A program made the position numbers and the translations under genes. DNA of 62,816 nucleotides from Desulfamplus sp. (GTDB taxonomy: Bacteria; Desulfobacterota; Desulfobacteria; Desulfobacterales; Desulfobacteraceae): the NCBI GenBank assembly GCA_015232935.1, contig JADFYT010000001.1, forward strand, positions 1 to 62,816, in the 5' to 3' direction. This document shows, one piece after another, positions 14,288-52,571 of this stretch (positions within the stretch are counted from its first letter, which is position 1; every line of letters starts with the position of its first letter). The notes beneath the pieces are model-generated. The model saw only the letters and a program-made list of their open reading frames with translations, had not been told where the DNA came from and made no database searches.

Positions 14288-14364
14288 TAACGTCCATGCC
14301 CTGATGGGCACAACGAAAAATGAAAGTCTTGTAATTACAACTGTCTCAGGAGACTTTCACATAA
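14288..14364 (+). mobile_element. 77-bp miniature IS110-like element, type II
   Basis: TAA-CGTCCATGCCC-TGAT-GGGCACAACGAAAAATGAAAGTCT...AGACTTTCACA-TAA; near-identical to 43867 and similar to 31899. Confidence 0.75.
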
Positions 14365-14385
14365 AATTTAAGGAGGCGACAGAGG

Positions 14386-14838
14386 ATGAAAAGAGAAGAT
14401 TTGATAGAATCGGCTGGCGAACTTGAAAAAGTCATTCCAGAGGCAATCAATGAATACAGGGAAAAACAGGACAAACTGGTCTCTATCATAAATGAGAGAA
14501 TGCTCAAAAGAGCTGATATTAAAGAGCTGGTAGGCGAACAGAACCTTGACATGATGAAAGACAACCATAAAAATCACGCCATGTTTGTAGAAGCAATAAT
14601 GAGTAACCCCAACCCTGAGGTTTTGACTGATACTGTTTTATGGGTATTCAGGTCATATCGCTCAAGGGGCTTTCATCAAAATTACTGGTCAGCACAGCTA
14701 AGTACATGGATTGATATTATCAAGGCAAATTTATCCGGGAAAAGTTTTGATGCCATTTACCCTCTCTACAACTGGTTTACGATAAACATTCCTCATTTTA
14801 CGAACCTGTCAGACAAACAACTGGATCATTTCCGTTGA
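14386..14838 (+). CDS. All-helical protein, possibly globin/phycobiliprotein-like partner of the B12 domain
   Basis: AAGGAGG RBS; NHKNHAMF...LTDTVLWVFRSYRSRG resembles helical domains often fused to B12-binding domains (fold inferred). Confidence 0.6.
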   Translation: MKREDLIESAGELEKVIPEAINEYREKQDKLVSIINERMLKRADIKELVGEQNLDMMKDNHKNHAMFVEAIMSNPNPEVLTDTVLWVFRSYRSRGFHQNYWSAQLSTWIDIIKANLSGKSFDAIYPLYNWFTINIPHFTNLSDKQLDHFR

Positions 14839-14871
14839 TGTGCCGGATCATCATTAAAACAAAGCAGAATC

Positions 14872-14929
14872 AAGGAACCGGTTTTAAATAACTTGCTCAT
14901 TCGAGAATACTCCGACATTGAAGGATGCC
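14872..14929 (+). repeat. About 58-bp dispersed repeat (inverted copy at 45160-45217)
   Basis: AAGGAACCGGTTTTAAATAACTTGCTCAT..AGAATAC.CCGAC.TTGAAGGA shared by both copies. Confidence 0.8.
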
Positions 14930-14974
14930 GGAAATCGTAGAAAAAAAAGTGACAACATTAGGTTGAAGAACACA

Positions 14975-16294
14975 ATGGAACCTGAAATCATGGAGTTGTT
15001 GTCTGAATGGTCTCCTTATGTTGATGAGTATCTCATCAGCAGCAGTGCATTTGCGTTCGGGCTTTTCAAATATAGTTATATTCAATCTCCGGACTCAAAC
15101 AGGCATGACTTGAAATATAGCGGTCGTGCCCTGTTTTTGAATGAGGGAATGAAAAACATGCTGGGCATTGAAGAAATTGACACTGACTTTGCTGAAGCTG
15201 AAGATAAATCCGAACCTGAAAAGCGATTTATAAATCCTGATTTCAGAACCCTTGAGCAGATTGCACGGAAAACTGACGATGGACTTGTTTTTGATGACAT
15301 ACTTACGATCGGAAGTGAATCAAAGAGCAGAAGCATTCAGGCGAAAGTGTTCTGCAGACAAAATCTTTTACTTGTTCTCTGCGAATATGATGTCAAGGAA
15401 TTAGATACCCTGAACAATACAATGGTGGAACTGAATCAGGAGCTTAATAATGTGCAGCGTGAGCTGATCAAAGAAAAAAAGATGCTCACCAGAACACTTT
15501 CTGATTTGAAAAATACCCAGTCAAAACTTGTTGAAGCTGAAAAGATGGCTTCACTGGGACGTCTGGTCGCAGGATTTGCCCATGAGATAAATACACCAAT
15601 CGGAATTGCCCTGACAGCCTCATCAGCTCTATTGGATGCCCAGCAGTCAATCAAGAGGATGCTCGCACTGGAAGAAGTTGATGAAGAGGAACTGGTTGAA
15701 CGTCTTGAAACAATAAACGAATGTTCACCTTTAGTCATTAATAATCTAAGACGTGCTGCTGATTTGGTTACAAGCTTCAAACGGACATCTATTGACCATA
15801 CTGTTGACAATTTACGCCTTTATAATCTTCGCGAGACGATAGATGATATTGTAATCAGCATGCGAAGCCAGTTCCAGAAAACTGCCATAGTTGTTGAAGT
15901 TGAGTGTCCCTATGACCTTGAGTTATATGGAACCCCGAATGATATCAGTCAGATATTATTGAACCTGATGTCCAACAGCCTGCTGCACGGGTTTGACAAC
16001 GGTACTATCCCGGGCAGGATTTTTATCAGGGCGGAACGGGCAAGCAATGACCCGCTTGAAAAAGACGAGCTGTTTATATATTATTCTGACACTGGCAAAG
16101 GCATGGACAACAAGGTGGTCAGGCAGATTTTTGAACCATTTTTCACAACTTTGCGTGCCAGAGGCGGAACCGGTCTGGGGATGTATATATGCCATAATAT
16201 CGTAACCACAAGGCTTAAAGGCACAATCAGATGTGAGAGCATAAAAGGAAAAGGTGCTGAATTTTTCATATCTTTTCCGATTTTGAATGTCTGA
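14975..16294 (+). CDS. Cytoplasmic sensor histidine kinase
   Basis: AGFAHEINTP, NLMSNSLLHG, GGTGLG. The TTG at 14918 lies inside a repeat, so ATG 14975 is preferred. Confidence 0.9.
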   Translation: MEPEIMELLSEWSPYVDEYLISSSAFAFGLFKYSYIQSPDSNRHDLKYSGRALFLNEGMKNMLGIEEIDTDFAEAEDKSEPEKRFINPDFRTLEQIARKTDDGLVFDDILTIGSESKSRSIQAKVFCRQNLLLVLCEYDVKELDTLNNTMVELNQELNNVQRELIKEKKMLTRTLSDLKNTQSKLVEAEKMASLGRLVAGFAHEINTPIGIALTASSALLDAQQSIKRMLALEEVDEEELVERLETINECSPLVINNLRRAADLVTSFKRTSIDHTVDNLRLYNLRETIDDIVISMRSQFQKTAIVVEVECPYDLELYGTPNDISQILLNLMSNSLLHGFDNGTIPGRIFIRAERASNDPLEKDELFIYYSDTGKGMDNKVVRQIFEPFFTTLRARGGTGLGMYICHNIVTTRLKGTIRCESIKGKGAEFFISFPILNV

Positions 16295-16396
16295 ATATCA
16301 GGTCACCTTCAGAACTCACTGTTGATCAGGTAAAAATAAATGTTCAAAAGCCAACTCTACAGAAAGTCTAATTACAGAAAAATATAAAGGTACTCC

Positions 16397-19075
16397 ATGA
16401 AGCTCATACGCAAAAAAGACAAAGAAGCGGCTCAAATTCAACAAAAAGAAGCTGCTTCACAAAAAGAAGATTTACATAAAGAGCTTCTTTCCCAAATAGA
16501 GGATTCACGCAAAGAAGCTTCTTTTAAAACAGACGATACTGTCATTCCAGACAAAAAAAACATGGTTCTGACGGATGAAAAAACGAATCTGAATATCGAT
16601 CTGCCCAAAGAACGCTACAGATGGAAAGTTCTTATTGTTGACGACGAACCGGATGTGCATGAAATTACAAGGATCAGCCTCAAAGGATTTAAATTCGACA
16701 ACAAGGAACTTGAGCTTATAAATGCAAGTTCAGCAGCAGAAGCCAGGAATATTTTCAATAAGGAAAGAGATATCGCGGTAGGCATTATTGATGTTGTCAT
16801 GGAGACAGAGGATGCAGGCCTTGAACTTGTAAAATACATACGCGATGAACTTAAACTGAAAAATATCCGTCTCATTATACGGACAGGACAGCCCGGAAGT
16901 GCACCTGAGCGTTATGTTGTAGATAATTTCGATATTGATGGTTATAAGGAGAAAACTGATCTTGCGGCACAAAATATTTATACAGTTCTTATATCAGCCA
17001 TAAAATCCTACAGAGATGTTATAACATTGGAAAAAAGCATAACTGAACGGAAGAAAGCTGAACAGGAGTTACGCGAAAGCCTTGATCTGAACAGAAAAAT
17101 CATCGATGGCTCTGTTACCGGAATTCTTGCTTACAGGGCAGGCAGCGGCAAATGCGTATTGCACAACCAGTCGGCAGCCCGTATCGCAGGTGCAACAGAG
17201 GAACAGATAAGCCGTCAAAATTTTCATCAGTTAGAATCATGGAAAAATTCCGGCCTGTATGACGCGGCTCTTGATGTTATCGCGACAGGCGATACAACCC
17301 GCATGGCAACCCATTTTATAACCACCTTTGGACGCGAAATGTGGCTTGACTTTGTTATCTCAAGATTTGTAAGCAGTGCGGAACATCATCTTCTTCTTAT
17401 GTTCGAGGATATCACCGAGCGTAAACACGCGGACAAGCTCAAAAGAGACAAAGCCGCTGCCGAAGCCGCAAACCTCGCGAAATCACAGTTTCTTGCCAAT
17501 ATGAGCCATGAAATCCGCACTCCGATGAACGTTATAATCGGCATGAGCAGACTTATCATGGAGACAAGACTCACAAAGGAGCAGCATGAATATGCTGATA
17601 TGATCTTTCAATCCTCTGAAATACTTTTATCCCTTATTGAAGAGATACTTGATTTTTCAAAAATAGAGGCTGACAAAATAGAGCTGGAATCAGTTGATTT
17701 TGACCTGACAAATCTGATCGGAAAAACAACTGATATCCTCAGATTCAAGGCATCTGAAAAGAAGTTGTATCTCAATTGCCATATTTCGCCTGATGTTCCC
17801 CGTTTTGCCAAAGGAGATCCAAACCGTCTTCGGCAGATTATTTTGAACCTTGTCAACAATGCCATCAAGTTTACAGAAAAAGGCGGGGTAACTATTGTGG
17901 TATCAACAGTAGAAGACGAGATTTCAGAATCAGATCTTGCACGCCCTGAGTTCCTGGCAAAAATGTCTTCTGGCCACCCTGGAACCTTGGTAGAACAATC
18001 CCCTGCAAGTTTCAGGCTTGCTTTTGAAGTAACAGATACAGGTATCGGCATTCCTCAAGAAAGTATGGATCGTCTGTTTCAGCCCTTTTCGCAGGCAGAT
18101 GCATCCACAACAAGAAAATATGGCGGAACCGGTCTTGGACTTGTTATCTCCAAACGACTTGCAGAGCTTATGGGAGGCCGGATCCAGGTTGAAAGCGATC
18201 AAGGAAAAGGAACCACATTCCGATTTCTGGCCTGTTTTGAGAAAGGGGATAATATTCCCGAATCGATTTACGAGATTAACAGTACAGAAAACAAGGGTGG
18301 CCAACTGTCTGATTTATCGCTTGCCGATATCCAGGTCTTACTGGCTGAAGATAATAGATTCAACCAGATATTGGCTCTTAAAATTCTTGAAAATATAGGC
18401 ATTTCTGCGGATGCCGTTTCTAATGGAAAAGAAGCTGTAGAAAGGCTTAAGAAAAAAAAATACGACCTTGTTCTGATGGATATCCAGATGCCAGGAATGG
18501 ACGGGCTTGAAGCCACAAGGACGATCAGGAGTGAAAAATTTGAGATTCCCGTTATTGCCATGACCGCCAATGTAACGCCACAGGATCGAGAGAACTGCTT
18601 TGCCGCCGGAATGGACGGCTATATTTCAAAACCTGTTGATCAGGATAAATTACTTGATCTGATTTACAGGCATATCAAGAATCCACAAATCACCTCCCCC
18701 GCAAATTCCGGTCTGACTTCACGCTATTCTGATACCAGCAAAATATTTGACAAAAAGGATTTTCTCAGCCGTGTTAATCAAAATGAGGAAGTAGTAAATC
18801 TCATTGTTGCAATGATTCCTGAGCATCTTCCAGATTACATACAAAAAATGAAAAAAGCTTTAGATAACCATGATCTGCAAAATGTCTTGATAGAGGCACA
18901 CGGTATAAAGGGTTTTGCTGTCAACTGTTCGGCTTACAGGCTTCGGGATGCGGCACATAAGGCAGAGGTTGCCGCAAAGAGCGGCGATATGGACAAGGTG
19001 CGGTTACTTATGCATGATATAGAAAAAGAAAGCGGGGATTTGATAAAGGTAATTCATGAAAATCATACGCGATAA
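16397..19075 (+). CDS. Hybrid histidine kinase (REC-PAS-HisKA-HATPase-REC-Hpt)
   Basis: [44 protein letters not shown]. Confidence 0.93.
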
Positions 19076-22000
19076 CGACAAGAATCGGATGAAATCGGGT
19101 GATTTTAACCGCACAGTACTGGATTCAATTCCCTTTAATATCGCAATTGTGGGAAAAACAGGCGATATTATTGCTGTAAATGATGCGTGGCAAACCTTTT
19201 CCGCACAAAACGGCGGAGACCCGGCAAGAACCGGTGTAGGCATGAATTATCTGGCTGTGTGCAAAGCAGCGGGAGAGAATCTGGTTCATGATCGATTAAA
19301 AGATATTCTGGAAAACAAAATTTCCCAATTCAGCTTTGAGTATCCATGTGATTCACCCTCGGAGTCACGCAACTTTAATATGAACATTGTACCTCTTAAG
19401 CTTAAGTCCGATCATCAAAGAATTTTTGAATATAAAGACTCCCAAAAAAAAATCGGCCATGAAAAAGAGAGCGGAGCCGTTATTTCCCATATTGATATAA
19501 CATCCCTTAAAAAAACCCAGACTGAACTATCTGAAGTTCTCGAAGAGCTCAAAAAAAGAGAGAATTTTCTAAAAACCATAACCGAAGTATTACCGGGAAT
19601 GGTTGGCTACTGGAAAAATGACCTTCGTTGCCATTTTGCAAACCATGCCTATACAGAATGGTTTGGGAAGACTCCGGAACAGATGCGGGGGATACATGTT
19701 AAAGATATGATGTCCCCTGAACTATTCGCAAGAAACAAACCGTTTATCCAGGCCGCACTTCGCGGTGAGCCTCAGAGTTTTGAGAGAACTCTTGTCAAGC
19801 CTTCGGGCGAAACCGGTTACACATGGGCACATTACGTCCCTGACATAGACGACAACGGAACTGTACAAGGTTTTTTTGTGCTGGTATCTGACATCACTGA
19901 ACTCAAAAAGACTGAATTTGCCCTGAAAGAGAGTGAAAAGACTCTCAATCGAGCTCAGGCAGTGTCCCATACCGGAAGCTGGCATATTGATGCCAAAACG
20001 AATGAGCTCTCCTGGTCAGAACAGAGTTACCGGATTTTCGGGTTTCCCGTTGGCACTCCATTCCGATATGAGGATTTTATCGGAAGAGTTCATCCTGATG
20101 ACCGTGTAGCAGTGGATTCGGCATGGCAGGCAGCCATGAAGGGCCTTCCTTATGACATTGTGCATCGTATTGTTGTGCCACATGCAAATGACGCACTTAA
20201 CAACCCAAATACCCTTGAGAGTGTACAGATCAAATGGGTACGGGAGCAGGCCGAGCTTGTTTTTGACTCAAAAGGCAAACTTAAAACCGGAATCGGCACT
20301 GTTCAGGACATTACAGAGCAAAAGCAGGCGGAAGAGATTATCAGGCAGAACGAGATGCGTCTTGAAAGCATAGTTAAAATCACCCAGCTAACCACAGAGA
20401 ACATCCAGGAGCTTCTGGATTGTGTATTGGACGCCGCGATTACAATGACCCGAAGCAAAATCGGATATCTGTATCATTACGATGATGAGAAACGTGAATT
20501 TACCCTCAATTCTTATTCAAAGGAGGTAATGAAAGAGTGTTCAATAGTTGAGCCCAAAAAACGTTATGAGCTTGACAGGACAGGTATCTGGGGTGAGGTA
20601 ATACGTCAAAGAAAAGCCATACTCCTTAACGATTTCAATGCCTTTCATCCGCTCAAAAAGGGATTTCCTGAAGGCCATGCCCCGCTTTTCCGCTATCTTA
20701 CCCTTCCGGTATTTATCAATGACAGGATAGTCGGGGTTGTCGGGGTCGCCAACAAGGAAAGTGACTATGACCATACAGATCTTCTTCAACTGACCCTGCT
20801 CATGGACGCTGTATGGAGGATCGTGGATCGTATCAACACCGGAAAAAAACTTCTTGAGGCAAAGCAGGCAGCGGAAGAGGCCAATCTTGCCAAAAGCGAG
20901 TTTCTGGCAAATATGAGCCATGAAATCCGTACACCCATGAACGCAATCATTGGACTGTCTCATCTGGCCCTTCAAACTGATGTTGATCCAAGGCAGCACG
21001 ATTACCTTATCAAAATTCACTCATCCGCACAGTCGCTTCTGGGCATTATCAACGATATATTAGACTTCTCCAAAATAGAGGCTCGCAGACTCAAAATAGA
21101 ATCTGTAGATTTCAATCTCAGCGATGTGATGGATCATGTAGGCAACATAGTATCTACAAAAACAGAGGAAAAGGGGCTGGAGCTCATGTTTAAAATAGGT
21201 ACTGATGTACCGTGCAATTTAACAGGCGATCCTCTGCGTCTGGGTCAGATACTTACAAATCTTTTAAACAATGCGGTTAAGTTTACCGACCACGGAGAGA
21301 TCATTGTTTCAGTTGAAGTCGCGGACAGCAGCAAAAAAACCGACGATAAAGCAATAACAGGCAATAATAATGGCTCCAAAGGCAAAGCTGAAACAGACAA
21401 CAACGAAAACACTGAAAAGGAACCGGAAACAGAAAACAAAAACAATAAAATCATACTCCAGTTTTCAGTGCGTGACACAGGTATCGGCATGTCAGACGAG
21501 ACTCTAAGCAGCCTTTTTCACCCCTTCACCCAGGCGGACAGCTCAATTACCAGGCAATATGGAGGTACTGGACTTGGGCTTGCAATCTGCAAAAGCCTTG
21601 TTGAGATGATGGGAGGCAAGATTCATGTCAATAGCACACAAGGCAAAGGCAGCATCTTTACATTTACTGTAAGTTTTGGCCTGACAGAGGAAAAACAACT
21701 CTCATGCCTTGAATCTGTGCCTGATATTAGTGGAGTACGTGTACTTGTAGTAGATGACAATGCCGCAGGAAGAGAGATACTTCTTGAATCTCTGATATCC
21801 TCCTCTTTTGATGCCTGTGCTGTTGACTCAGGAATGGCAGCCATAGAAGAGCTGGAAAATGCTTCACGTAAATCCATGCCATACCGTGTTGTTCTTATGG
21901 ACTGGAAAATGCCTGGAATGGACGGAATTGAAACAGCAATAAAGATACGGCAGGACAAAAGGCTTTCAGAAATACCGGTCATTGTCATGGTGACAGCATT

Positions 22001-23429
22001 TGGCAGAGAAGAGATAAAATATAAAGCAAAACAGGTAGGCATCAAAGGATTTTTAACCAAGCCTGTTCTTCCATCCATGCTTTACAACACTATCCTTGAA
22101 GCTATGGGAATGGAGGAATATGCACTGTCAGTCGCATATTCCGCAAAATCAGCAAAGCACATCTGGCCTGAACTCTGTGGTGTCAGGATTCTTTTAGTTG
22201 AGGATCATCCTATTAACCAGCAGGTTGCACAAGAGCTCCTGGAAGGTGCCAATATGGATGTTCATATTGTGAAAAACGGCAAAGAGGCTGTCGCAAAATT
22301 GAGCAGGGCAAATGCCAGCTATCGTGCGGTTCTCATGGATATACAGATGCCGGTTATGGATGGCTACGAGGCAACAAGGCTGATACGTCTTGATCAAAGA
22401 CACAAGGATCTTCCGATTATAGCAATGACAGCCCATGCAATGGTTGAGGAGAGGGACAGATGTATAGGTATCGGGATGAATGATCATATTGCAAAGCCCC
22501 TTGATCCTGAACAGCTCTTTTCTGTGCTGAAAAAATGGATAAAAAAAGAGAGCTCCGCACTCTCCTTTAAAAAAGAAATCTCGGCAAAACCGGATGACTC
22601 TTGCCATTTTCCAATGACCGAGAACTTACCTATGAGAAAAAATCTTGCAGGAACAAATCTTACTGCGACCAATCTTACAGCAATGAATCTGCCAGCAATG
22701 CAAAATCTTCCTGGATTTGACTTCCCCAAAGCCATTGAAAGGGTCAATGGGAACATAAAACTTCTAAAAACCATTCTTGGCAATTTTTCAGAAGAGTACC
22801 ATGATGCTGCCTCGAAAATAAAAAGACTGCTGGATAAAAAAGATATAGAGCCACTAAAACTATACATTCATACTCTAAAAGGGATAGCCGGAAACATTTC
22901 GGCAACAGACCTTTTTGACTCAATCAAGAGACTTGAGGATTCTGTAAAAAACCGGAATTCCTCTGAAACTGAGCAATCATCCTGTTATGAAGCACTCCTG
23001 CAAAACCTTGAAAACGTGCTTAGAATCTTTCTCTCATCAGCCCTGACTGTAATCCGCAAATATGAAAGTCATGAGACAGGCAGCATGGATGCTTCAGCCA
23101 ACTCAACAGGAACCAGAACAGATACAGTCTCTGAAAATGCCATATCCGAAAGTGCCGTAACTGATTGCCAGGATGATATTGACAAGCTGTTTCCGCTGCT
23201 TCAGGATTTTCATGGGTTAATAAGGAAAAACAGCCTTGATTCCATAAACAAATGGGCTGATATCAAACAGCAGCTAAAAGATACCTGTGTAAAAAAACAG
23301 AGGTCAAACGATAATAGTTTCAAAAAACATATAGACAATATAGAGTCAAATCTGGCCAAATTTAATTTCAAAGGAGCAACCGCTTCTCTGCTGATTATTG
23401 CCAAGGCACTTAAAACAGAATTGAAATAA
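19056..23429 (+). CDS. Hybrid histidine kinase (PAS x3, GAF, HisKA, HATPase, REC x2, Hpt)
   Basis: Repeated DITE PAS ends, [21 protein letters not shown], two receivers, HTLKG. Confidence 0.93.
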
Positions 23430-26365: not shown

Positions 26366-26430
26366 GATGCCTGAAAATGTATTTTTACTTTCAAGATTCG
26401 GGGCGGCCACACAGTAACGATGAATGTTTA
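26366..26430 (-). mobile_element. About 65-bp miniature IS110-like element, type I (degenerate)
   Basis: Minus strand TAAACATTCATCGTTACTGTGTGGCCGCCCCGAATCTTGAAA...TTTCA. Confidence 0.6.
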
Positions 26431-26584
26431 TTGCAAAGTCAATCTATATTGATTGATGCTATTCTTAAATTGAAGAAGATTCAGCTTCTAAACAAAAATA
26501 ACTTGTCAATAACGAGGCAATAAGATATTCGTTTTTTTGTCATCCTTCATTTGCCAGTTGACACTTCTTGTATAATTTTCCAGA

Positions 26585-26662
26585 TAACCGGCAAGGCCGG
26601 AGCGGGGTAGTGGCTCTCGGCCACAACGAAGAATGATGAGAACAGGAATAACTCATTACTAA
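26585..26662 (+). mobile_element. 78-bp divergent miniature IS110-like element
   Basis: TAAC...GTGGC-TCTCG-GCCACAACGAAGAATGATGAG...CTCATTAC-TAA; same CACAACGAA.AATGA core and CAGATAAC flank as 14288. Confidence 0.5.
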
Positions 26663-31454: not shown

Positions 31455-31519
31455 TAAACACTCATGGCTCTTGTGTGGCCACACCGAATCATGAAAACCG
31501 GAATGAGTTTTCATGGCAG
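31455..31519 (+). mobile_element. 65-bp miniature IS110-like element, type I
   Basis: TAAACACTCATGGCTCTTGTGTGGCCACACCGAATCATGAAAAC...GTTTTCATGG; closely resembles the IS110 end at 543-585. Confidence 0.72.
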
Positions 31520-31898: not shown

Positions 31899-31976
31899 CA
31901 ACGGCCATGCCCTGATGGGCACAACAAAAAATTAAAGTCTCATGATTACAGCTATTTTTAATAGACTTTCACATAA
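31899..31976 (+). mobile_element. 78-bp miniature IS110-like element, type II
   Basis: ACGGCCATGCCCTGATGGGCACAAC...AAAGTCT...AGACTTTCACATAA. Confidence 0.72.
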
Positions 31977-31998
31977 AAAAGGAGCTTGAAAACCATAT

Positions 31999-33621: not shown

Positions 33622-33879
33622 AAATGCCAGAAGAAACCTGAAAATTTTATTTGAGGAAGTCAGTGCAAATCAATTTGCCGTTTTAAAAAAACGATTCACT
33701 GCGGTGTGAATGCTCCAAGTTGTTAAAGCGGTATTTTAAAAAAAATGCTCTAAATTGTTAAAGCGGTATTTAAAAAACTACGGACTCCCTTATGTCAACA
33801 GCGCATATCATGACGAGAGATGTTTTGAATTAATGATGAGATCAAAGAATGACCGGAAGCTGAAGGAGGATGGTGAAAA

Positions 33880-37057: not shown

Positions 37058-37132
37058 TTAATTATGAAGATAGATTTCCAGAAAAGTCTTTTCATCCCTC
37101 CGAGGGTTTTAGCCCCATGGCGACATGGTTCC
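37058..37132 (-). mobile_element. Degenerate miniature IS110-like element
   Basis: TTTTCATCCCTCCGAGGGT...hairpin...CATGG resembles TTTTTCATCCTCGGGGGT...CATG of the IS110 end. Confidence 0.4.
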
Positions 37133-43630: not shown

Positions 43631-43646
43631 AGCAATAGACATGCCA
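43631..43646 (-). promoter_or_regulatory. Sigma54 -24/-12 promoter of cydAB
   Basis: Minus strand TGGCATGTCTATTGCT, GG-N10-GC, about 160 bp upstream of cydA. Confidence 0.7.
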
Positions 43647-43866: not shown

Positions 43867-43943
43867 TAACGGCCATGCCCTGATGGGCACAATGAAAAAT
43901 GAAAGTCTTATAATTACAACTGTCTCAGGAGACTTTCACATAA
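43867..43943 (+). mobile_element. 77-bp miniature IS110-like element, type II
   Basis: Near-identical to 14288-14364; TAA at both ends. Confidence 0.75.
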
Positions 43944-44117
43944 AAATCAATAAAATTTAAAACCTGACAGAGTCAGCAACAACAAAGATACTTTTTTATT
44001 TTTCATGAATTTAAATCCCAAAAAAAATACAAAAAAGCTGATTATGTTCCCACTTAAGGAATTTCAGTCAGACATTAATTGCAGCAAAGATGATTATGTT
44101 CTGGAGACCCTTTTGCC

Positions 44118-44324
44118 ATGCTAAAAAAAAAATATAACATAAATATACAAAGAACATTGGAACTTGCCGAAGCAATGATACTTCTTGCGAGGCAAGGTGA
44201 TGAGGCAAGAGAGGATTCAGGTTGTGGTGTTCTTTATGGAACTCTTCTTGATGCAGGATTTAAAATAAAACAACTCGCATCAAAAGAGAAGGAGGCACAT
44301 ATCAATAAAGGCGGATGGCAGTAA
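44118..44324 (+). CDS. Small hypothetical protein
   Basis: 68 aa helical ORF with EDSGCGVLYG, directly upstream of a ferredoxin. Confidence 0.7.
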   Translation: MLKKKYNINIQRTLELAEAMILLARQGDEAREDSGCGVLYGTLLDAGFKIKQLASKEKEAHINKGGWQ

Positions 44325-44347
44325 TAGTTTCAATATAGAGGTGAATT

Positions 44348-44638
44348 ATGAAAACACCTGTCATTGATATCAGTGAATGTGTTTTGTGTGATATCTGTGT
44401 AGAGTTGTGTCCGGACATTTTTATAAAAAATCAAGCTGGATATATTGAAGTTTCAGACAGTTTTCCAGAAATTATTGATAAATACTTGAACGAAGACACT
44501 TTTACTTCTTTGGATGCAGACGGCTGCGAGAAAGAGCTTCTGATCAAACGCCTGGAAGAAGATATAAATGATGTAATAAAAAGTTGTATAGGAGGCTGCA
44601 TATCATGGGGTGAAAAAACTCAAACAGACAATATATGA
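44348..44638 (+). CDS. Monocluster ferredoxin with internal insertion
   Basis: CVLCDICVELCP and C-terminal CIGGCISW. Confidence 0.8.
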   Translation: MKTPVIDISECVLCDICVELCPDIFIKNQAGYIEVSDSFPEIIDKYLNEDTFTSLDADGCEKELLIKRLEEDINDVIKSCIGGCISWGEKTQTDNI

Positions 44639-45047
44639 ACTGCTCACGATGAGTGATGAGCAAAAGGCTATCGAGGAACTCCTTGAATTTCCACCAGCCA
44701 AATCCATAAACCCCCTTTTTTCATTTATCCAGAACTCTAACGAAAATATAAAATGGAGAGCAGTCAGAGCTATGGGTAAAGTTGTCGCAAAGATGGCATC
44801 TAAAAATCTTGAATCTGCCCGAGTTGTCATGAGACGGCTAATGTGGAGTCTTAATGACGAATCAGGAGGTATAGGATGGGGGGCACCTGAAGCCATGGGA
44901 GAGATCATGGCTCAGGATGAGAGGCTTGCAAGTGAATACAAAAAAATTCTTTTGTCCTATGTTGATGAAAAGGGCAATTTTCTTGAGCATGAACCACTCA
45001 GAAAAGGAGCTGTATGGGCTATTGAGCGTCTCTCTACTACTCCATAA
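44610..45047 (+). CDS. DVU0298-like HEAT-repeat protein
   Basis: RRLMWSLNDESGGIGWGAPEAMGEI. Confidence 0.78.
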   Translation: MKKLKQTIYELLTMSDEQKAIEELLEFPPAKSINPLFSFIQNSNENIKWRAVRAMGKVVAKMASKNLESARVVMRRLMWSLNDESGGIGWGAPEAMGEIMAQDERLASEYKKILLSYVDEKGNFLEHEPLRKGAVWAIERLSTTP

Positions 45048-45159
45048 AACATAGAGCATTTCCGGAAGCTTTAGAGCATTCCCGGAAGCTTAAAAGTTTG
45101 TAACGAACCCTTTCAGGAATGAGTCTGACAATAAAATACCCGTTTTAAAATCCAAATAC

Positions 45160-45217
45160 GCCGTCCTTCAAGGTCGGTGTATTCTTACATGAGCAAGTTA
45201 TTTAAAACCGGTTCCTT
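45160..45217 (-). repeat. About 58-bp dispersed repeat (copy of 14872-14929)
   Basis: Reverse complement aligns with 14872-14929. Confidence 0.8.
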
Positions 45218-45238
45218 AAAAGTGTGTAAGAAGGTCTT

Positions 45239-45508
45239 TTAAGATATATAATTCATTGAGATATTTCTTATTGCCAGCAACGCATCAAGTTTGAGTTGCA
45301 GCTTCATGATTTCAGATTCCAGCTCTTCAACCACCACTTCCAGAATAACACCATCCAGAACCTTTTCAATAATATTTTCCCCGACCCAGCCACCTACATT
45401 CTGACAATAAAGATTCCCTTCATTTATCCATATAATATCGTCTTTGGATAAAGAAAGATCCTTGTTCCCTCTTACAACCCTGTACTTGATACTCTCTATA
45501 AGTTTCAT
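45239..45508 (-). CDS. Hypothetical protein
   Basis: 89 aa ORF with GGAGG RBS, downstream of proC. Confidence 0.6.
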   Translation of the reverse strand: MKLIESIKYRVVRGNKDLSLSKDDIIWINEGNLYCQNVGGWVGENIIEKVLDGVILEVVVEELESEIMKLQLKLDALLAIRNISMNYIS

Positions 45509-45603
45509 AAATCCCCTCCCCTGTTTTATAGTTCGCGTTCAGGAATTGCATTGTTCCAAAATTTTAATTCAACAAGAATTTCAGCCAGGCTGCGTATGTT
45601 TTA

Positions 45604-46461
45604 TCAATATTTTTTCCCGTTATTTTTTTCAAAATTCTGAATCATAATCTTTCCAAGCTCCATAGAGCGGTTTGTAGCAGACTCAACAGCATTAATAATG
45701 GTTGTTCTGAGTCCGCCAGCCTCCAGCGTATGGATTCCCGCGATGGCAGTGCCTCCTGGTGAGGTAACCCTGTCTTTAAGCTGTCCTGGATGCTCTCTTG
45801 ATTCAAGCAACATCTTGGCAGCTCCAAGGACTGTCTGGCTCGATAGCAAAAGTGAATCTTTTCTTGAAAGACCCATCTTTACCCCGGCATCTGCCATTGC
45901 ATCGACAATCATAAAAATATAGGCGGGACCGCTTCCGCTCAATCCTGTAAACGCATCCATCAAGATATTTTCCTCTATAAAGACACTTATACCTACAGAA
46001 TCAAAAACAGCCTTTGCAAGCTCGATATCACCTTCCTGCACATATTGGCCCGCGGCAATGGCAGTTGCACTTGCCTTGACAAAAGCACAGATATTTGGCA
46101 TCACACGAATAAGTCTGAGCTCCTTGTTAAGACCTGCCTCAATGGCAGCAAGGGGTACTCCGGCCGCAATGGAAATAACAAGTTTTGAACGATCCAGTGA
46201 CCCGGCTGTCTGCTTCAGTACCTTACCAAGAATCTGGGGTTTTGTTGAATATACAACAATCTCTGATCGTTCAACCACTTCAATATTGCTGGTTGTTGTC
46301 AGTACCCCATATTTTTCATGTATATCCTTTAAAGGCTCTTTACGGACATCTGAACAGATGATATTTTCAGGCTTGGTTGCCTTTGACATGACAAGACCAC
46401 TTATAAGTGCTTCTCCCATGTTTCCACTTCCAATAAAACCGATTTTTTTTTCCTGCAGCAT
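45604..46461 (-). CDS. proC: Pyrroline-5-carboxylate reductase
   Basis: GFIGSGNMG, RVMPN, SGSGPAY, VTSPGGT. Confidence 0.96.
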   Translation of the reverse strand: MLQEKKIGFIGSGNMGEALISGLVMSKATKPENIICSDVRKEPLKDIHEKYGVLTTTSNIEVVERSEIVVYSTKPQILGKVLKQTAGSLDRSKLVISIAAGVPLAAIEAGLNKELRLIRVMPNICAFVKASATAIAAGQYVQEGDIELAKAVFDSVGISVFIEENILMDAFTGLSGSGPAYIFMIVDAMADAGVKMGLSRKDSLLLSSQTVLGAAKMLLESREHPGQLKDRVTSPGGTAIAGIHTLEAGGLRTTIINAVESATNRSMELGKIMIQNFEKNNGKKY

Positions 46462-46573
46462 GATTTATGCAATCCTTAAAAAGTCAGAATGAAATTAATA
46501 ACAACGTTGCGACAAAACAAAGAGAATCGTCTCAAAAGAGAATAGCCTCACTGTTCTTTGTGCAACCAAACAA

Positions 46574-46662
46574 GAGTGCATCCTTTTTGCATCCTGCTCA
46601 TGGCATCAGGGGTATATGGACCCTACGCCCCTGATACAATTAAACATAAAAAGGCTGTACGC
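46574..46662. repeat. 89-bp REP-containing MITE-like element, copy A
   Basis: GAGTGCATCCTTTTT...central GGGGTA..TACGCCCCT hairpin...AAAAAGGCTGTACGC. Confidence 0.75.
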
Positions 46663-46724
46663 TAAAGATATGATGAAGCATATTAGGGATTGAAATTCTT
46701 TCAAGTCAAGATAAATTATAAATT

Positions 46725-46813
46725 GAGTGCAGTCTTTTTGCATTTTATTCGTAATATCATGGAGTGTAGCACGCTACGCCCCTACTGGAATTCAACATAA
46801 AAAGGCTATACTC
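46725..46813. repeat. 89-bp REP-containing MITE-like element, copy B
   Basis: GAGTGCAGTCTTTTT...GTAGCACGCTACGCCCCTAC...AAAAAGGCTATACTC. Confidence 0.78.
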
Positions 46814-46862
46814 TTATAAACTGAACAACCACAAAGGATCGACATGACAATAAAGGATCAAC

Positions 46863-47717
46863 ATGACAACAAAAGGCAGGAGTGATCTTCTCCGAGAGCA
46901 ATTGGATATTATCTATGGCACTTACAATAAAAGGGAGTATATACATCCTGATCCACTTGAATTTCTTGACAATTATCCTGACCCCGGCGAAAGGGAGATA
47001 GCGGCTGTTATTGCAGCATCATTAGCTTACGGGAGAGTAGATCAAATTCTCAAGCATGTTGGACGGGTATTTGAAATAATGAACAACTCTGTACACGCCT
47101 TTCCTCTTGAGAGCTATCCTCTCAATGCCTATTTGACGCAAAATAAAAATGAGGATATTGCTTATGATTTCAAAGATTTCAAATATCGTTTTACCAAAGG
47201 TGAACACTTTATTTGCCTTCTTTTTGGAATAAAAGATATACTTATTCATTTTGGTTCATTGAAAAATTTTTTTTTAAATGCGGTCTCAAAAGAAGACGAG
47301 ACAATTCTTCCTGCAATGGCTCGTTTCACTCAAAAAATAACATCAGGAAAAAATACAGGCAACCTTATAGCAGACCCTGAAAAAGGAAGTGCCTGCAAAC
47401 GTAACAATCTGTTTTTAAGATGGATGGTAAGAAAAGATGATGTGGATCCTGGAGGATGGGGGGAAATTTCACCCTCCATGCTTATTGTTCCCCTGGATAC
47501 ACACATGCATCATGTCGGAAGAATTCTTGGCTTTACAAGACGGAAACAGGCAGACATGAAAACAGCTCTTGAAGTTACAAAAGGCTTCAAAGAGATATGT
47601 CCCGAAGATCCTGTAAAGTATGATTTTTGTCTTACAAGATTTGGAATACGGCCTGACATGGACTTCCATAATCTGAAAACCATAATTGATGACCTCGTAA
47701 AAACTCAGGTTGCCTAA
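46863..47717 (+). CDS. TIGR02757/DUF2400 family protein
   Basis: PDPL, LAYGR, SACKR.N.FLRWMVR, PLDTH, DPVKYDF. Confidence 0.88.
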   Translation: MTTKGRSDLLREQLDIIYGTYNKREYIHPDPLEFLDNYPDPGEREIAAVIAASLAYGRVDQILKHVGRVFEIMNNSVHAFPLESYPLNAYLTQNKNEDIAYDFKDFKYRFTKGEHFICLLFGIKDILIHFGSLKNFFLNAVSKEDETILPAMARFTQKITSGKNTGNLIADPEKGSACKRNNLFLRWMVRKDDVDPGGWGEISPSMLIVPLDTHMHHVGRILGFTRRKQADMKTALEVTKGFKEICPEDPVKYDFCLTRFGIRPDMDFHNLKTIIDDLVKTQVA

Positions 47718-47790
47718 ACCTGCGTCCAATAAAACCAGAGGGTTACTACACACAAAAAAACGCCTGCTTCGGACTTTTTACGGGAACATG
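47688..47790. mobile_element. 103-bp MITE with IS1182-like terminal repeats and 6-bp target duplication
   Basis: GATGACCTCGTAAAAACTC...GACTTTTTACGGGAACATG flanked by ATAATT on both sides. Confidence 0.75.
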
Positions 47791-47812
47791 ATAATTCACA
47801 GAAAGGAGAGCC

Positions 47813-48031
47813 ATGAAACACGATGTCACCATTTTCAAACCATACCCATTTAAGTTGGGTCAAAAAATAAGGATAGATGGATCAGGAAGAAACGGAGACT
47901 GGGAGGTTATTGATATAGGTGAAAATAAAATAACCATAAAATGCCCCATATCCCATAAAGAGCTAAAATGTGATAAATTCTGCTGTTTTGTTGAAGAAAA
48001 AAACAATGAGGATTGGCCAAAACTTGCATGA
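47813..48031 (+). CDS. Small hypothetical protein
   Basis: AAGGAG RBS; PYPF..GQKIRI...GDWEV...CP. Confidence 0.7.
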   Translation: MKHDVTIFKPYPFKLGQKIRIDGSGRNGDWEVIDIGENKITIKCPISHKELKCDKFCCFVEEKNNEDWPKLA

Positions 48032-48103
48032 CTAACGGAATCAGACCACCCTATGCATGAAATCCATGACATATTTTCACGGTAAACAGGAGGTAGATAC
48101 CTT

Positions 48104-48664
48104 ATGAAAGTAATTTTAGTAATGGCAATGACACTTGATGGCAAAATAGCCAGGCACTCTATGGAGCCTGTGAACTGGACGGGAAAAGCCGATAAAAGAA
48201 AATTTGTCAAGATCACAAAGGAAGCCGGTGCCGTTATCATGGGTTCAACCACATTTGACACTATCGGCAAGATACTTCCTGACCGCAAGAACATTGTAAT
48301 GACGAGAAACCCTATCCGCCTTGCCATAGATTCAAACCATAGTGGAACTGTACAAAATCTGAACCGCAACAGCAGAACCACAGGGAATGGAATTCTTGAA
48401 TTTACAGATAAAAGTCCAGAGGAAATTCTCAAATCTCTTGAAAAGGAGGGGTTTGAATCTGCTGCGTTAATAGGGGGATCAATAATAAACGGCCTGTTTG
48501 CGAAAGAAAATCTTATTGACGAGGTTTATATAACCCTTGTGCCCAAGCTCTTTGGTCAGGGACTTTCCTTGTTTGCCGCAGATTTTGACATCAACCTTGA
48601 GCTTTCTGAAATGGAGAAAATTGATGAAAATTCCATTTTACTGAAATACAATGTTATAAAGTAA
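48104..48664 (+). CDS. Dihydrofolate reductase family protein
   Basis: AMTLDGKIA, IMGSTTF, LPDRKNIV, IGGS. Confidence 0.85.
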   Translation: MKVILVMAMTLDGKIARHSMEPVNWTGKADKRKFVKITKEAGAVIMGSTTFDTIGKILPDRKNIVMTRNPIRLAIDSNHSGTVQNLNRNSRTTGNGILEFTDKSPEEILKSLEKEGFESAALIGGSIINGLFAKENLIDEVYITLVPKLFGQGLSLFAADFDINLELSEMEKIDENSILLKYNVIK

Positions 48665-48678
48665 AATACCAATCATAA

Positions 48679-48767
48679 CAGATTTCCTGCGAAACCTGAT
48701 TTTGCCGCCTGATTGCAATGGATGAACAACAAGTTTTGGATGAGCAACGAGTTTTGCAGCAAGTCTG
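48679..48767. repeat. Possible MITE with imperfect terminal inverted repeats
   Basis: CAGATTTCCTGCGAAA...TTTTGCAGCAAGTCTG; a similar left end occurs near 24798. Confidence 0.45.
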
Positions 48768-48801
48768 ATGATCCAATATATTTTTTGGGGAAAAACTCTG
48801 C

Positions 48802-51102
48802 ATGAAAAGACTGAAACCCGTCATCGTCCCCTTGATCCTGCCAGTTTTTATTTTTATCTTCTGGGTTAATATTCCTTTTTTTGAATTGGCTGATTTTGCA
48901 TGGAGAGATCTGCTTTACACACTGAGATCATCACACAATAATGTTGATGATGTCATTATCGTGGCCATTGACGAACCATCTTTCAGGCAAATCAGGTTAA
49001 GATGGCCATGGCCCAGAAGCCTGCACGCAAAAATCGTGGACAAATTGAGCAATGCGGGTGCATCTGCAATTGCCTTTGATATAATTTTCCCTGAAAAATC
49101 CAATGATCCGTCAGAAGATATCCTCTTTTCAGAAGCTGTAATGAAAGCAGGAAATGTTGTACTTGCCTCGAATCTTACCATAACCGGTCGTCATGGCTAT
49201 GAGACCTATTTTATAGAAGAGCCTGTTCCCGTTCTTGCATCTGCAGCGGCAGCTATAGGGATGGTCAATTTTTATCCTGATGGTGACGGCAGTGTTCGTA
49301 TGGCCTCAAACCGTGTAGATATTCGCGACTCAATCTCATTTGCCGCTGTAAGCACGGCTATTAAAACCACGGGTGTTAAAAACAAAAAGAACACAAACGA
49401 CCTTTCCTCACTGAACAAGACAGGCACGTCAGGCCAGTTAGACACCACAGATCAATCAGACAACCAAAACCACCTGGATAAGACAGGCCACCTGGATGAC
49501 ACAGGCGATTTGGATGAAACAGGCAACCTGGACATCGCAAGCCAATCAGACAACACAGGTCATGCTGACTCTTTATATGATATTAACGAAGAGGAAAAAT
49601 TTTTCATAGATTATGCAGGCAAGGCAGGGACTGTTCCTGCTGTTTCATATTATCAGGTTATAGACGATATGGTTGACCCTGAAGTTTTTAAGGACAAGAT
49701 TGTTTTTGTCGGATTTATAGCGGATTCCGCGGTAGAAATTGAAAGTGGTGCAGATTCCTACCCCTACCCTTTTATGCGTTTTACAAAAAAGATGATATCT
49801 GGTGTGGAGATTCAGGCCAATGTGGTAAGAACTATCTTAAAAGGCTATCCCATACGAGAATTTTCAATACCGGAGATAAAATGGCTCTGTTTTTATCTGT
49901 TGGCCTGTATTCTGATTCCTGTCAGAAAAAACCCTGTTTACTTAATCATCTCAACAGCAACAATGCTACTTGTTTCTTCAGTCACATCTATCGCTCTTTT
50001 CAAATATAATGGAATTATGGTTGATGTGATGCCAGCAACAGCAGCGGTTACTATAAATGGATTGTTGATTGGAACCAAAGAGTTCTTCCAGAGCTACAGG
50101 GAAAAATCAGTGCTAAGAAAAGCATTTGACAGCTATGTATCCCCCAATGTTGTAGCACGGGTTATCGCAAACCATGAAAACCTGAAACTTGGCGGTGAGA
50201 GAAAACGGCTTTCTGTTCTTTTTTCCGACATAAGAGGATTTACCACACTTTCTGAAAAACTGCCTCCTGAAGAACTTGTCACTCTTTTGAACAACTATTT
50301 TACACGTATGACTGACACTGTTTTCAGGCACAATGGAACCCTTGACAAATATATAGGGGATGCAATCATGGTAATATTTGGTGCTCCGGTATGGAGTGAC
50401 AACCATGCTCAGGATGCCTGCTGCACTGCCCTTGAAATGAAAGTACGCCTTGAAGAGATGAATCAGGAAAATAACACTTTGAGCCAGAAAAAAGATTTTA
50501 TTGATAAAGATGACCATGCAAAACACTCAGTCAATAAAGATAAGAATGTGGTTGTTCAAAAGAGCAAATTAGATATTGGCATAGGCATAAATACAGGCGA
50601 AATGATTGTAGGCAATATGGGATCCTTGCTCAGGTTTGACTATACTGTCATGGGCGATGAGGTCAACCTTGCATCAAGACTGGAAGGGGTAACAAAATCA
50701 TATGGAGTCCAGATTATTATCAGCGAAACGACAAAAAATGACCTGGATGAGACAAGGTTTCTTTGCAGAGAACTTGATTTAATCAGGGTTAAAGGAAAAT
50801 TTGCCGCAATCAGGATATATGAGCTGGTATCCATGCTGTCTGCCGGGTCAGCAGAGGCAGAAACAGCGTCAGATGATGAAACGTGGATAAAGCTGTTTGC
50901 TGAGGGACTTGAAATATACAGAAACGGATACAGGGAAGAACTTTGGGATGATGCGATTTCTCTTTTCAGAAAAGTATTGGAATATAAAAAAGATGATGGC
51001 CCTTCAAAGCTGTTTATTGAACGATGTGAAATGTTCAAAAAGAGTCCGCCGGTTGAGAAGGGAGAAGAGTGGGACGGAGTCTGGGTGATGTCAACCAAAT
51101 AG
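48802..51102 (+). CDS. CHASE2-domain class III adenylate/guanylate cyclase
   Basis: IVAIDE...WPWPR, FSDIRGFT, DKYIGDAIM, YTVMGDEVNLASRLE. Confidence 0.93.
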   Translation: MKRLKPVIVPLILPVFIFIFWVNIPFFELADFAWRDLLYTLRSSHNNVDDVIIVAIDEPSFRQIRLRWPWPRSLHAKIVDKLSNAGASAIAFDIIFPEKSNDPSEDILFSEAVMKAGNVVLASNLTITGRHGYETYFIEEPVPVLASAAAAIGMVNFYPDGDGSVRMASNRVDIRDSISFAAVSTAIKTTGVKNKKNTNDLSSLNKTGTSGQLDTTDQSDNQNHLDKTGHLDDTGDLDETGNLDIASQSDNTGHADSLYDINEEEKFFIDYAGKAGTVPAVSYYQVIDDMVDPEVFKDKIVFVGFIADSAVEIESGADSYPYPFMRFTKKMISGVEIQANVVRTILKGYPIREFSIPEIKWLCFYLLACILIPVRKNPVYLIISTATMLLVSSVTSIALFKYNGIMVDVMPATAAVTINGLLIGTKEFFQSYREKSVLRKAFDSYVSPNVVARVIANHENLKLGGERKRLSVLFSDIRGFTTLSEKLPPEELVTLLNNYFTRMTDTVFRHNGTLDKYIGDAIMVIFGAPVWSDNHAQDACCTALEMKVRLEEMNQENNTLSQKKDFIDKDDHAKHSVNKDKNVVVQKSKLDIGIGINTGEMIVGNMGSLLRFDYTVMGDEVNLASRLEGVTKSYGVQIIISETTKNDLDETRFLCRELDLIRVKGKFAAIRIYELVSMLSAGSAEAETASDDETWIKLFAEGLEIYRNGYREELWDDAISLFRKVLEYKKDDGPSKLFIERCEMFKKSPPVEKGEEWDGVWVMSTK

Positions 51103-51133
51103 ATCAAATCTATTCCAGGCGATCAAATCAAAT

Positions 51134-51284
51134 ACGTGTAGCCTTTTTACCATTAAAAGGAGTCCTGATTTTCGTGGCTCGGGATAGTCACACAACGGCC
51201 ATGAAGGTTTAGGTTTAATTGCTGTAGGGGGTGTAGGTACGCCCGCCCTTAATACAGTCAATGAAATGCCAAAAGGCTACACTC
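51134..51284. repeat. 89-bp REP-MITE copy C interrupted by a miniature IS110-like element
   Basis: Perfect 12-bp TIR GTGTAGCCTTTT (51136-51147)/AAAAGGCTACAC (51271-51282); 151 bp = 89 + 62. Confidence 0.8.
51147..51211 (-). mobile_element. 65-bp miniature IS110-like element, type I
   Basis: Minus strand TAAACCTTCATGGCCGTTGTGTGACTATCCCGAGCCACGAAAA...TTTTAATGGTAA. Confidence 0.78.
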
Positions 51285-51328
51285 TTGTCAAATTTCATGT
51301 AAACCAAACCAGATAAGGAGAGTAATAT

Positions 51329-52483
51329 ATGACAACATGGTATTGCACAAACTGTCATTCCCAGATGGAGCAAGACGAGTCTCCACAAAATTGTTCAAAC
51401 TGCCTTGCCCACGAGAAACTTGTACTCGACATGGCAGAAGGGATTCCGGCAACACCTGAAGATGTGCGAGACAGTGCCAGAAAAAAACTTAAAGGTTTAT
51501 GTGCGGCATACCCGCTATGTGATGGTAATTTCGACAAGGTTTGCCAGAAGGAGGCCTATGGCAAATCAATCGGTTTTGGAGGTGCGGGTCAAGGCACATC
51601 TTTTAAAAACAATGTCCAATCCCTTATGAACATAAGGCTGAAAATGAGAGTGGTAGGCGAACATACAGAACCTGACACATCCATTGAATTCCTTGGAATG
51701 AAACTCGATTTTCCGGTTATGGGAGCATCCACAGCAGGTATTGAAAAATATAACGATGCCATGCCTGAAAAAGATTTTTGCAGGGCTGTTGTGAGAGGAT
51801 GCAAAGAGGCCGGAACAATTGGCTGGAGGGGAGATACATGGTTCTACACTCCAAAAAACAATCCTGCCCTTGAGGTGCTAAAAGAGGAAAAAGGGGCAGG
51901 CATACCTATTTTCAAACCCAGATCCCAGGATGTTCTCAAACAGCTTATCAGCATGGCTGAAAATGCCGGATGCCCTGCCGTAGGAATTGATCTTGACGGA
52001 TGCGGCTCTACAATCATGGCAAAGCACGGCCAGCCAGTGTTCCGTAAAAGCTCAAAAGATATCCGGGAACTGGTTGAATTTACCACGCTTCCTTTCATAA
52101 CCAAAGGGATCATGGCTGTTGAAGATGCCAAAGCGTGTGTGGAGGCAGGTGTAAAGGTGATATCTGTATCCAATCACGGCGGCAGGGTTCTTGACTCAAC
52201 TCCTGGTGTGGCAGAGGTTGTTCCTGAAATAGCAGCGATCCTTAAAGGCAAGGTCTTTATTACTGCTGATGGAGGGATAAGAACAGGTTATGATGTACTT
52301 AAAATGATAGCTCTTGGCGCTGATGCAGTATTGCTTGGGAGGGATGTCATAAGAGCTTCGGTTGGGGCAGGATCACTTGGTGTAAAGCTTCATATGGAAC
52401 ATATCAGAAAGGTTTTTAAAAAAGCGATGTTTATGACTGGACAGACCACTGTGAGCGGGATTACAAAAAAAATTCTTTGTTAG
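51329..52483 (+). CDS. FMN-dependent alpha-hydroxy-acid dehydrogenase family protein with N-terminal CxxC/CxxC module
   Basis: TKGIM, SNHGGRVLD, DGGIR, LLGR; WYCTNC...CSNC at the N-terminus. Confidence 0.88.
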   Translation: MTTWYCTNCHSQMEQDESPQNCSNCLAHEKLVLDMAEGIPATPEDVRDSARKKLKGLCAAYPLCDGNFDKVCQKEAYGKSIGFGGAGQGTSFKNNVQSLMNIRLKMRVVGEHTEPDTSIEFLGMKLDFPVMGASTAGIEKYNDAMPEKDFCRAVVRGCKEAGTIGWRGDTWFYTPKNNPALEVLKEEKGAGIPIFKPRSQDVLKQLISMAENAGCPAVGIDLDGCGSTIMAKHGQPVFRKSSKDIRELVEFTTLPFITKGIMAVEDAKACVEAGVKVISVSNHGGRVLDSTPGVAEVVPEIAAILKGKVFITADGGIRTGYDVLKMIALGADAVLLGRDVIRASVGAGSLGVKLHMEHIRKVFKKAMFMTGQTTVSGITKKILC

Positions 52484-52506
52484 ATTTGAGCCTGTTTTTT
52501 TGAATT

Positions 52507-52571
52507 TTACCATAAAAATGCGTTATGATTTTCATGGTTCGGGGTGACAACCCAATGGCAATGAATCTTTA
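52507..52571 (-). mobile_element. 65-bp miniature IS110-like element, type I
   Basis: Minus strand TAAAGATTCATTGCCATTGGGTTGTCACCCCGAACCATGAAAAT...ATTTTTATGGTAA. Confidence 0.75.

Follow-up and report, generated by a model that had tools for sequence, protein, structure and literature searches.

The one described natural hitch-hiker of an IS110-family insertion sequence (IS) that we found in the literature is MITEPpu9 (A'-ssr9-B'), presented in the available passages of PMC12288879 as a non-autonomous module of ISPpu9 in Pseudomonas putida KT2440. We also found one survey of tandem units, whose accessible text reports that head-to-tail noncoding units accumulate beside IS110 genes (n = 468; bioRxiv 10.64898/2026.08.14.744561); PMC3184786 and PMC11602168 mention IS110 merely in passing. 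Here, we analyzed 62,816 nucleotides (nt) of a Desulfamplus sp. genome (assembly GCA_015232935.1, contig JADFYT010000001.1, positions 1 to 62,816; hereafter, the window), in which short repeats of two types, I and II, recur. On the sequence evidence, these mini-elements are very probably gene-less miniatures made from the ends of two IS110-family ISs with an AA core. The recombinase and the predicted bridge RNA of their parents probably act in trans to copy them elsewhere in the genome. They are a variant of the described IS110 hitch-hikers, extreme in size (62 to 75 nt) and number. A sequence-only reading of the window had suggested that they might form an undescribed class of miniature transposable element with inverted repeats (MITE); MITEPpu9 is a described example of the kind.

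The genome that contains the window (G000, with the window as its contig C111) comprises 2.88 Mb in 486 contigs and is 64% complete. Profiles of both types were built from its copies and iterated, with a cutoff of E < 0.01. They returned 355 type I and 102 type II matches, that is 457 or one per 6.3 kb, compared to none in a shuffled genome even at E < 1. The layout proposed by the sequence-only reading also held as a strict pattern, with 73 matches in the genome versus 1 to 6 in five shuffles. Both ends could be anchored in 258 matches, and the lengths of these had modes of 65 and 77. Each mini-element consists of the left end through its sub-terminal repeat (∼43 bp), a spacer of 8 to 25 bp, and the right end from its own repeat onward (∼15 bp). 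The unit between the cores is 62 to 75 nt long, and the 65- and 77-bp elements carry neither a recombinase gene nor a bridge RNA of their own. Their repeats are sub-terminal and asymmetric and only the 2-bp core recurs, in contrast to the terminal inverted repeats and target-site duplication of a classical MITE.

Seven of the nine copies listed by the sequence-only reading were recovered by the profiles. The type I copies among them lie at 26366..26430 (minus strand; E = 1e-9; right end damaged), 31455..31519 (plus), 51147..51211 (minus), and 52507..52571 (minus), and the type II copies lie at 14288..14365, 31899..31977, and 43867..43944 (all plus), the last being 94% identical to the copy at 14288 over 86 nt. 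Of an eighth, at 26585..26640 (plus), only the type II left end is left (left-end profile, E = 8.5e-4), and its hairpin is long; the right end, lost here, is kept in full by the orthologue in genome G010. The ninth, at 37058, was rejected as a member, with no match at E < 1 to the full profiles or at E < 10 to the left-end profile. Three copies had not been listed before: type I elements at 5950..6014 (minus; E = 1.6e-12; left core worn) and 48019..48085 (plus; E = 1.6e-5), together with a type II-like copy, weak and worn, at 57336..57413 (minus; E = 5e-4). The 14288 copy is absent in G010, the site of 48019 is without an element in G007, G008, G010, and G013, and that of 51147 is without one in G007 and G010. 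The extension of the second hairpin inside the mini-elements showed no covariation (P = 0.15 and 0.98), and no promoter was evident at the junction by eye, the only inspection made, with no scan. Palindromes of the GTAG type, resembling repetitive extragenic palindromic (REP) sequences, adjoin the heads of two type I copies (window 51215-51245 and 52575-52610) and also occur inside the spacer of type II mini-elements in G002 (locus L034) and G285. Mini-elements can carry REP cargo.

Full-length IS110 copies end in exactly the sequences that make up the mini-elements, as the sequence-only reading had supposed in calling them minimal left-end plus right-end derivatives. In the window, positions 77-585 (minus strand) are the left part of an IS110 sitting in an IS4-like transposase gene. 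This remnant includes the 5' part of the recombinase gene (77..286) and the type I left end (543..585), which reads as a target T and AA core at 585-583, CATG, the hairpin, the CACCCCCGA box, and the sub-terminal repeat ATGAAAA. A PF01548 search of the whole genome gave no match, the 69-amino-acid remnant falling under the family threshold; it was identified by its 88.6% amino acid identity to the protein of an intact copy in G001. The reported match between the mini-elements and positions 543-585 is real (E = 2e-8) but accounts for type I only, and in place of the single cognate IS110 that had been assumed, we found a second clade, with 41% amino acid identity to the first, behind type II.

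The intact type I copy in G001 (recombinase gene at C1:460575-461801) encodes 409 amino acids with PF01548 and PF02371, has the type I head, and ends in TTTTCACGGT-AA; two G001 copies agree out to the AA core and no further. In the genome of the window, three identical type I right ends have different flanks (contigs C46, C376, and C288, two of them at contig starts), indicating that recent IS copies existed though they are unassembled. Members of the type II clade occur in G010 (recombinase on contig C260), G002, G001, G015, and G168, among others. They carry the type II head and tail; their left end is short and their right end long, and the latter terminates in TTTCAYATA-AA when intact. Identical type II IS copies in G168 and G015 share their ends exactly to the AA core, and their flanks differ. 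Both domains, PF01548 and PF02371, scored above the cutoff in parents of either clade, as in a DEDD plus Transposase_20 recombinase, and the nearest named IS homologues are Desulfobacula and Desulfobacterium records. We therefore assign types I and II, with considerable confidence, to the left plus right ends of two different IS110 clades. An attC/integron origin was rejected because the ends are those of IS110 and the right end lacks the GTTRRRY motif.

These comparisons also refined the ends themselves. The core is AA in 20/20 IS loci (left ends were set by a fixed offset from CATG, with the offset of L201 set by hand), so that of the TAA previously read at the junction, the T belongs to the target side at the left end. 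The short inverted TTTCA(T) is genuine, and the repeat it pairs with is found ∼33 bp in from the left end. In 14 full-length IS copies, the bases beside ATGAAA and TTTCAY were complementary at 2.71/3 positions versus 1.69 when permuted (0/20,000 permutations reached the observed value), which identifies the pair as sub-terminal inverted repeats.

Could the two conserved segments instead be halves of a host repeat? If the mini-elements were REP-like targets into which an IS110 inserts mid-repeat, the insertion would divide them into parts of 43 bp and ∼15 bp. IS110 copies do often adjoin such repeats, and REP targeting is common in the family (according to the available passages of PMC12288879); IS621 and ISPpu9 insert into REPs. 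However, where IS copies are identical, so are their 43-bp and 15-bp ends, as far as the core and within unrelated flanks, and the target guide described below matches the flank outside the 43 bp. Moreover, the gene that hosts the window IS is uninterrupted in G010, where it reads GCAAC-T-AA-ATAAC and has no repeat; the window reads GCAAC-T-AA and then the IS. These data largely refute the idea of a split host target, which we regard as very improbable, and the segments are better read as the ends of the IS. The host gene lies in a nest of IS remnants: positions 586-1040 are the 3' part of the IS4-like DDE transposase, positions 1045-1479 are a piece of another DDE transposase, and positions 1-77 are the end of another multi-copy IS that truncates the IS110 recombinase gene and is 98 to 100% identical at 7 other places, several of them at contig ends.

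Evidence that the mini-elements have moved came from a comparison, in both directions, of 859 kb of G010 (about a quarter, in 66 stretches) with the genome of the window. Among the 205 and 98 elements tested, both flanks were orthologous for 29 and 46. At these 75 sites, 55 had no element in the other genome, 11 were shared, and 9 had another element nearby; the elements are thus mostly not fixed, contrary to one outcome that the sequence-only reading had set against mobility. Of 24 tightly aligned sites, 13 were empty and deviated from the length predicted by no more than 3 bp, whereas 3 were filled and 8 were otherwise different. One orthologous site holds type I in the genome of the window and type II in G010, and beside window position 14288, where G010 lacks the type II copy, G010 has at the upstream stop codon a type I copy that the window lacks. 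Within the genome of the window, joined-flank queries matched for 23/253 elements; 16 of these were tandem-array neighbors and 7 were empty paralogous repeats, 5 of the 7 being gapless across the junction. The short shared core, the lack of further target duplication, and the precise empty sites are as in IS110 insertion.

We also considered that each mini-element might be the in-place deletion scar of a full-length IS110 that never moved in its short form. Many copies are indeed old and diverged (median nearest-neighbor identity, 0.85 to 0.88), and the 11 sites shared with G010 would suit scars. Yet a cluster of 27 near-identical copies (13 of them identical) has the same internal join within unrelated flanks, the lengths peak at 65 and 77, and identical units form arrays. 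In the genome of the window, 33 pairs of matches lie no more than 15 bp apart, many of them head to tail on one shared TAAA. We consider deletion in place very unlikely, and dispersal of ready-made miniatures remains our reading.

The genomic placement of the copies raises a different alternative, in which the host would retain them by selection for a function, either as cis-regulatory sites in RNA or DNA or as repeats that it has domesticated. Open reading frames of at least 120 amino acids cover 85% of the genome, and only 22/457 matches lie inside them (14/355 of type I and 8/102 of type II), leaving 95% outside. Type I copies show mild co-orientation with their neighbors (110 versus 73), and there is a slight excess at stop codons (16/204 versus 3.6% expected). 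The same intergenic bias is nevertheless expected from selection against gene disruption; an Rfam scan of the window gave no match, both orientations occur, and the copies are mostly absent at orthologous sites. Selection for a host function is thus a most improbable source of the family as a whole, compared to trans mobilization by IS110.

What would guide such mobilization? Both clades have a conserved two-loop noncoding region, present in 31/31 loci examined (an initial RNA pattern was too strict, matching 3/32, and was replaced by the one that matched 31/31). It lies upstream in the type I clade; only the type II clade has a long noncoding region downstream. Compensatory changes were observed at 13/35 and 11/18 of the predicted stem pairs in the two clades, and on this covariation we predict that the region encodes a bridge RNA. 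The predicted RNA in the window spans 335..505 on the minus strand and belongs to the clade with 13/35 compensated pairs; window positions 360-504 are the sole RNA-profile match in the genome. Within it, in minus-strand order, lie a predicted target guide with core (465-457), a predicted segment resembling the left-end box (432-425), and a predicted donor guide for the right end and core (392-385).

Across the 20 IS loci, we compared the pentamer that precedes AA in the first loop with the adjoining five bases of the upstream flank; the two agreed at 74/100 positions versus 36 ± 5 when permuted (0/100,000; the loci are related, and the P value is therefore overstated). The second loop carries the right end and core and varies along with the right end: the donor guide CACATAAA occurs with the right end ...CACATAAA in L033, CATATAAA with ...CATATAAA in L034/L036, and (C/T)ACGGTAA with ...CACGGTAA in the type I clade. 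In the target loop, the base 3' of the core changes in step with the base at which the left end begins (AC, C, or T), as is expected of a handshake guide in the available part of PMC13626964. In both clades the complement of the top strand comes first and the match to the bottom strand second. GCGTTTG, downstream of the donor loop, was tried as a second donor guide and rejected, as it is not conserved in alignment A1.

These guide matches bear on whether the mini-elements are instead REPIN- or PATE-like units moved by a hairpin-recognizing HUH transposase (RAYT or IS200). Each unit does have two hairpins, and GTAG-type palindromes stand beside or inside some copies; the mini units themselves lack the GTAG start typical of REP/REPIN, and it is to IS110 that their ends, their core, and the matches to the guides can all be assigned. 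An HUH enzyme is therefore an extremely unlikely mover compared to the IS110 recombinase of the parents.

The flanks of the copies carry a trace of the predicted target guide. C precedes T-AA in 35/48 young type I copies compared to 26/156 older ones (P = 9e-13), as predicted by the guide in the window (..CCT-AA). Type II shows a flank bias of another origin, arising because these mini-elements land repeatedly in one host repeat. This repeat ends in TTTTCCAGAT-AA, and as a recurrent landing site it is found at window 26540-26587, on contigs C88, C151, C455, and C464, and at L034.

Strict type II patterns were found in 21/301 genomes of the order, with 98 in G015, 72 in G168, 24 in G285, and 14 in the genome of the window; a reversed pattern gave 0. 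Strict type I patterns occurred in 2/301, both in the genus, of which the sample held just two other members. The three genomes richest in type II mini-elements (G015, G168, and G285) carry the cognate IS, their target guides end in TATA-AA, which matches their own right end, and their IS copies have up to 1+6, 4+4, or 5+1 mini-elements attached. G168, one of these genomes with a guide that matches the right end of its own element, also contains head-to-tail arrays of whole IS110s with 1,763-bp spacing (C1:2178784-2183425 and 4203031-4205909). A search with the layout pattern in ±1.5-kb loci around distant IS110s gave no convincing mini-elements.

Several results weigh against trans mobilization by these parents. 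The assembly of the window's genome, 64% complete, contains only fragments of recombinase genes and no intact one of either clade, and neither a type II IS nor a type II RNA was found in it. G116, G086, G138, and G144 have mini-elements but no cognate IS that our query could find, and G008 and G012 show left-end-like matches and no IS110 was found. Conversely, G219, G034, G039, and G014 carry the cognate IS yet have 0 to 1 strict mini-element matches. The exact predicted length was seen at only 3 of the 13 near-empty orthologous sites, whose flanks are 81 to 96% identical. Type I target specificity is very weak overall; young flanks follow the window guide at position -1 only, and -2 is more often G than C.

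In the mechanism that we propose, the donor loop would read the right end and core of a mini-element while the target loop would select sites that loosely fit N-C/A-T-AA-A. As IS variants whose target guides differed succeeded one another, each probably gave rise to its own wave of mini-elements, and a target guide that matches the element's own right end could build head-to-tail arrays. As for the route, a double-stranded circle of 62 to 75 bp would be very strained owing to the stiffness of DNA, which makes single-strand copy-out or direct strand transfer a likely alternative; on this analysis we lean, by a little, toward the single-strand route. Loose targeting and donor-type tandem junctions also fit half-match recombination. 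Single-strand copy-out or direct transfer has been reported for IS621 and CazIS110-1 (accessible text of 10.64898/2026.08.31.748434 and 10.1101/2025.10.25.684509) and is disputed by the double-stranded circle model set out in the available part of PMC13626964. It could copy a 62- to 75-nt unit, its half-matches giving loose targets and tandem junctions, although in those papers, as far as available, it is shown for other IS110s with large cargo, unlike the mini-elements here.

The left end may hold a further recognition element. IS110s from many phyla show its layout (CATG, hairpin, CAC box, and ATGAAA). When 49 distinct left ends were chosen without a pairing filter, the hairpin arms paired at 3.12/4 positions versus 1.32 when permuted, with all four pair types and varied loop lengths. 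Within the window's genome alone, covariation of the type I hairpin was not significant (P = 0.10; strict parse, 37/180 parsed), and with G010 added it was weak (P = 0.005 and 0.003). The RNA segment just 5' of TGT in the donor loop covaries, in the same sense, with the left-end box behind the hairpin, 25 to 33 bp inside the element. The two matched at 4.51/6 positions versus 2.86 when permuted (59 loci), and at 4.33 versus 2.75 when each 65% protein cluster was represented by a single locus (n = 12; 0/50,000); the antisense control gave 1.83 versus 1.95. These matches were scored at a fixed register with the constant AC skipped and an anchor tuned after examples had been seen; with less tuning, the test on 19 box classes returned P = 1.5e-4. 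Several loci score just 2 to 3/6.

The bottom strand would be the pairing partner of both the RNA segment and the right-end guide, as would suit a donor that is single-stranded and folded. It is a tentative possibility, drawn from these matches, that this widespread IS110 clade uses a third guide to recognize a donor in the form of one folded strand. The box, the right end, and the core would then be brought together by folding through the left-end hairpin and the displaced inverted repeat, and the 65- to 77-bp elements would be the naturally selected minimum of the folded donor, which might explain how DNA too short for a double-stranded circle still spreads to hundreds of sites. Alternatively, the same match could reflect an antisense RNA as the partner, or a protein that recognizes both the RNA and the DNA. 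When the A-box palindrome of ISPpu9 was mutated, circle formation stayed intact (available passages of PMC12288879); such hairpins need not be essential, whereas the hairpin arms here covary across the clade. If the third guide were real, the extra covarying segment would add programmable specificity, and surveys with 25-nt donor windows (as in the accessible text of 10.64898/2026.10.21.760802) would largely miss it.

The window has further features. Two unrelated repeat families of ∼110 bp (54550-54675 with 47680-47800, and 45110-45220 with 14872-14930) have 56 and 25 BLAST matches in the genome and may be MITEs that belong to other IS families. Two intergenic regions (7687-7763 and 44002-44101) share inverted repeats of a separate family, and a 35-bp direct doublet lies at 33709-33777. 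Window genes include those for ATP sulfurylase and a multihaem cytochrome, which together with the nearest named IS homologues suggest a sulfate reducer, as well as a pyruvate-formate-lyase-like glycyl radical enzyme (11038-13521) with a 21/42-nt repeat insert at 11692-11858, adjoined by genes for a radical SAM activator (GAGATA run at 10782-10829) and a B12-binding protein.

If moved as proposed, the mini-elements would mark about the smallest DNA that an IS110 enzyme can move. They would make the family a natural minimal-donor experiment for bridge recombinases, in which hundreds of variants map the donor bases that matter and a 62- to 75-nt unit discriminates between the double-stranded-circle and the single-strand copy-out or direct-transfer models. 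They would also show that repeats of REP size, amounting to about 1% of a genome, can be seeded by an RNA-guided IS. In the article texts searched, a scope that does not take in bioRxiv supplements, figures such as Extended Data Fig. 10c of PMC11208160, or ISfinder/TnPedia, we found no dispersed, ends-only IS110 family of this size and number and no report of the extra RNA-DNA match; the IS1111-group passages of PMC11187229 and PMC11208160 likewise contain no RNA segment matching a left-end box.

In the available passages of those two papers, the IS1111 group (seekRNA/bridge RNA) resembles our parents in guide order, sub-terminal inverted repeats, and the 3-bp right extension, and resembles the type II clade in its long downstream noncoding region. 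The parents differ in that their repeats are 7 to 10 bp rather than 11 to 13 bp, the left one lies ∼33 bp inside, behind a hairpin, rather than after a 7-bp left extension, and the type I clade has its RNA upstream. Compared to the tandem units of the survey, as far as its text is accessible, each mini-element here has both ends, and most are dispersed singletons. The closest likeness is to MITEPpu9 as described in the available parts of its report: it too is bounded by its parent's 43-bp A box and 16-bp B box with a 2-nt core, its A-box palindrome GCCC-N4-GGGC is also present in the type II mini-elements, and it is arranged in tandem with its IS, gives circles of its own, and occurs as tandem duplicates. 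MITEPpu9, however, has a small RNA gene inside, 8 copies, REP targets, and an AG core, whereas the mini-elements described here have 8 to 25 bp between their ends, ∼450 copies in two families, an AA core, and loose targets.

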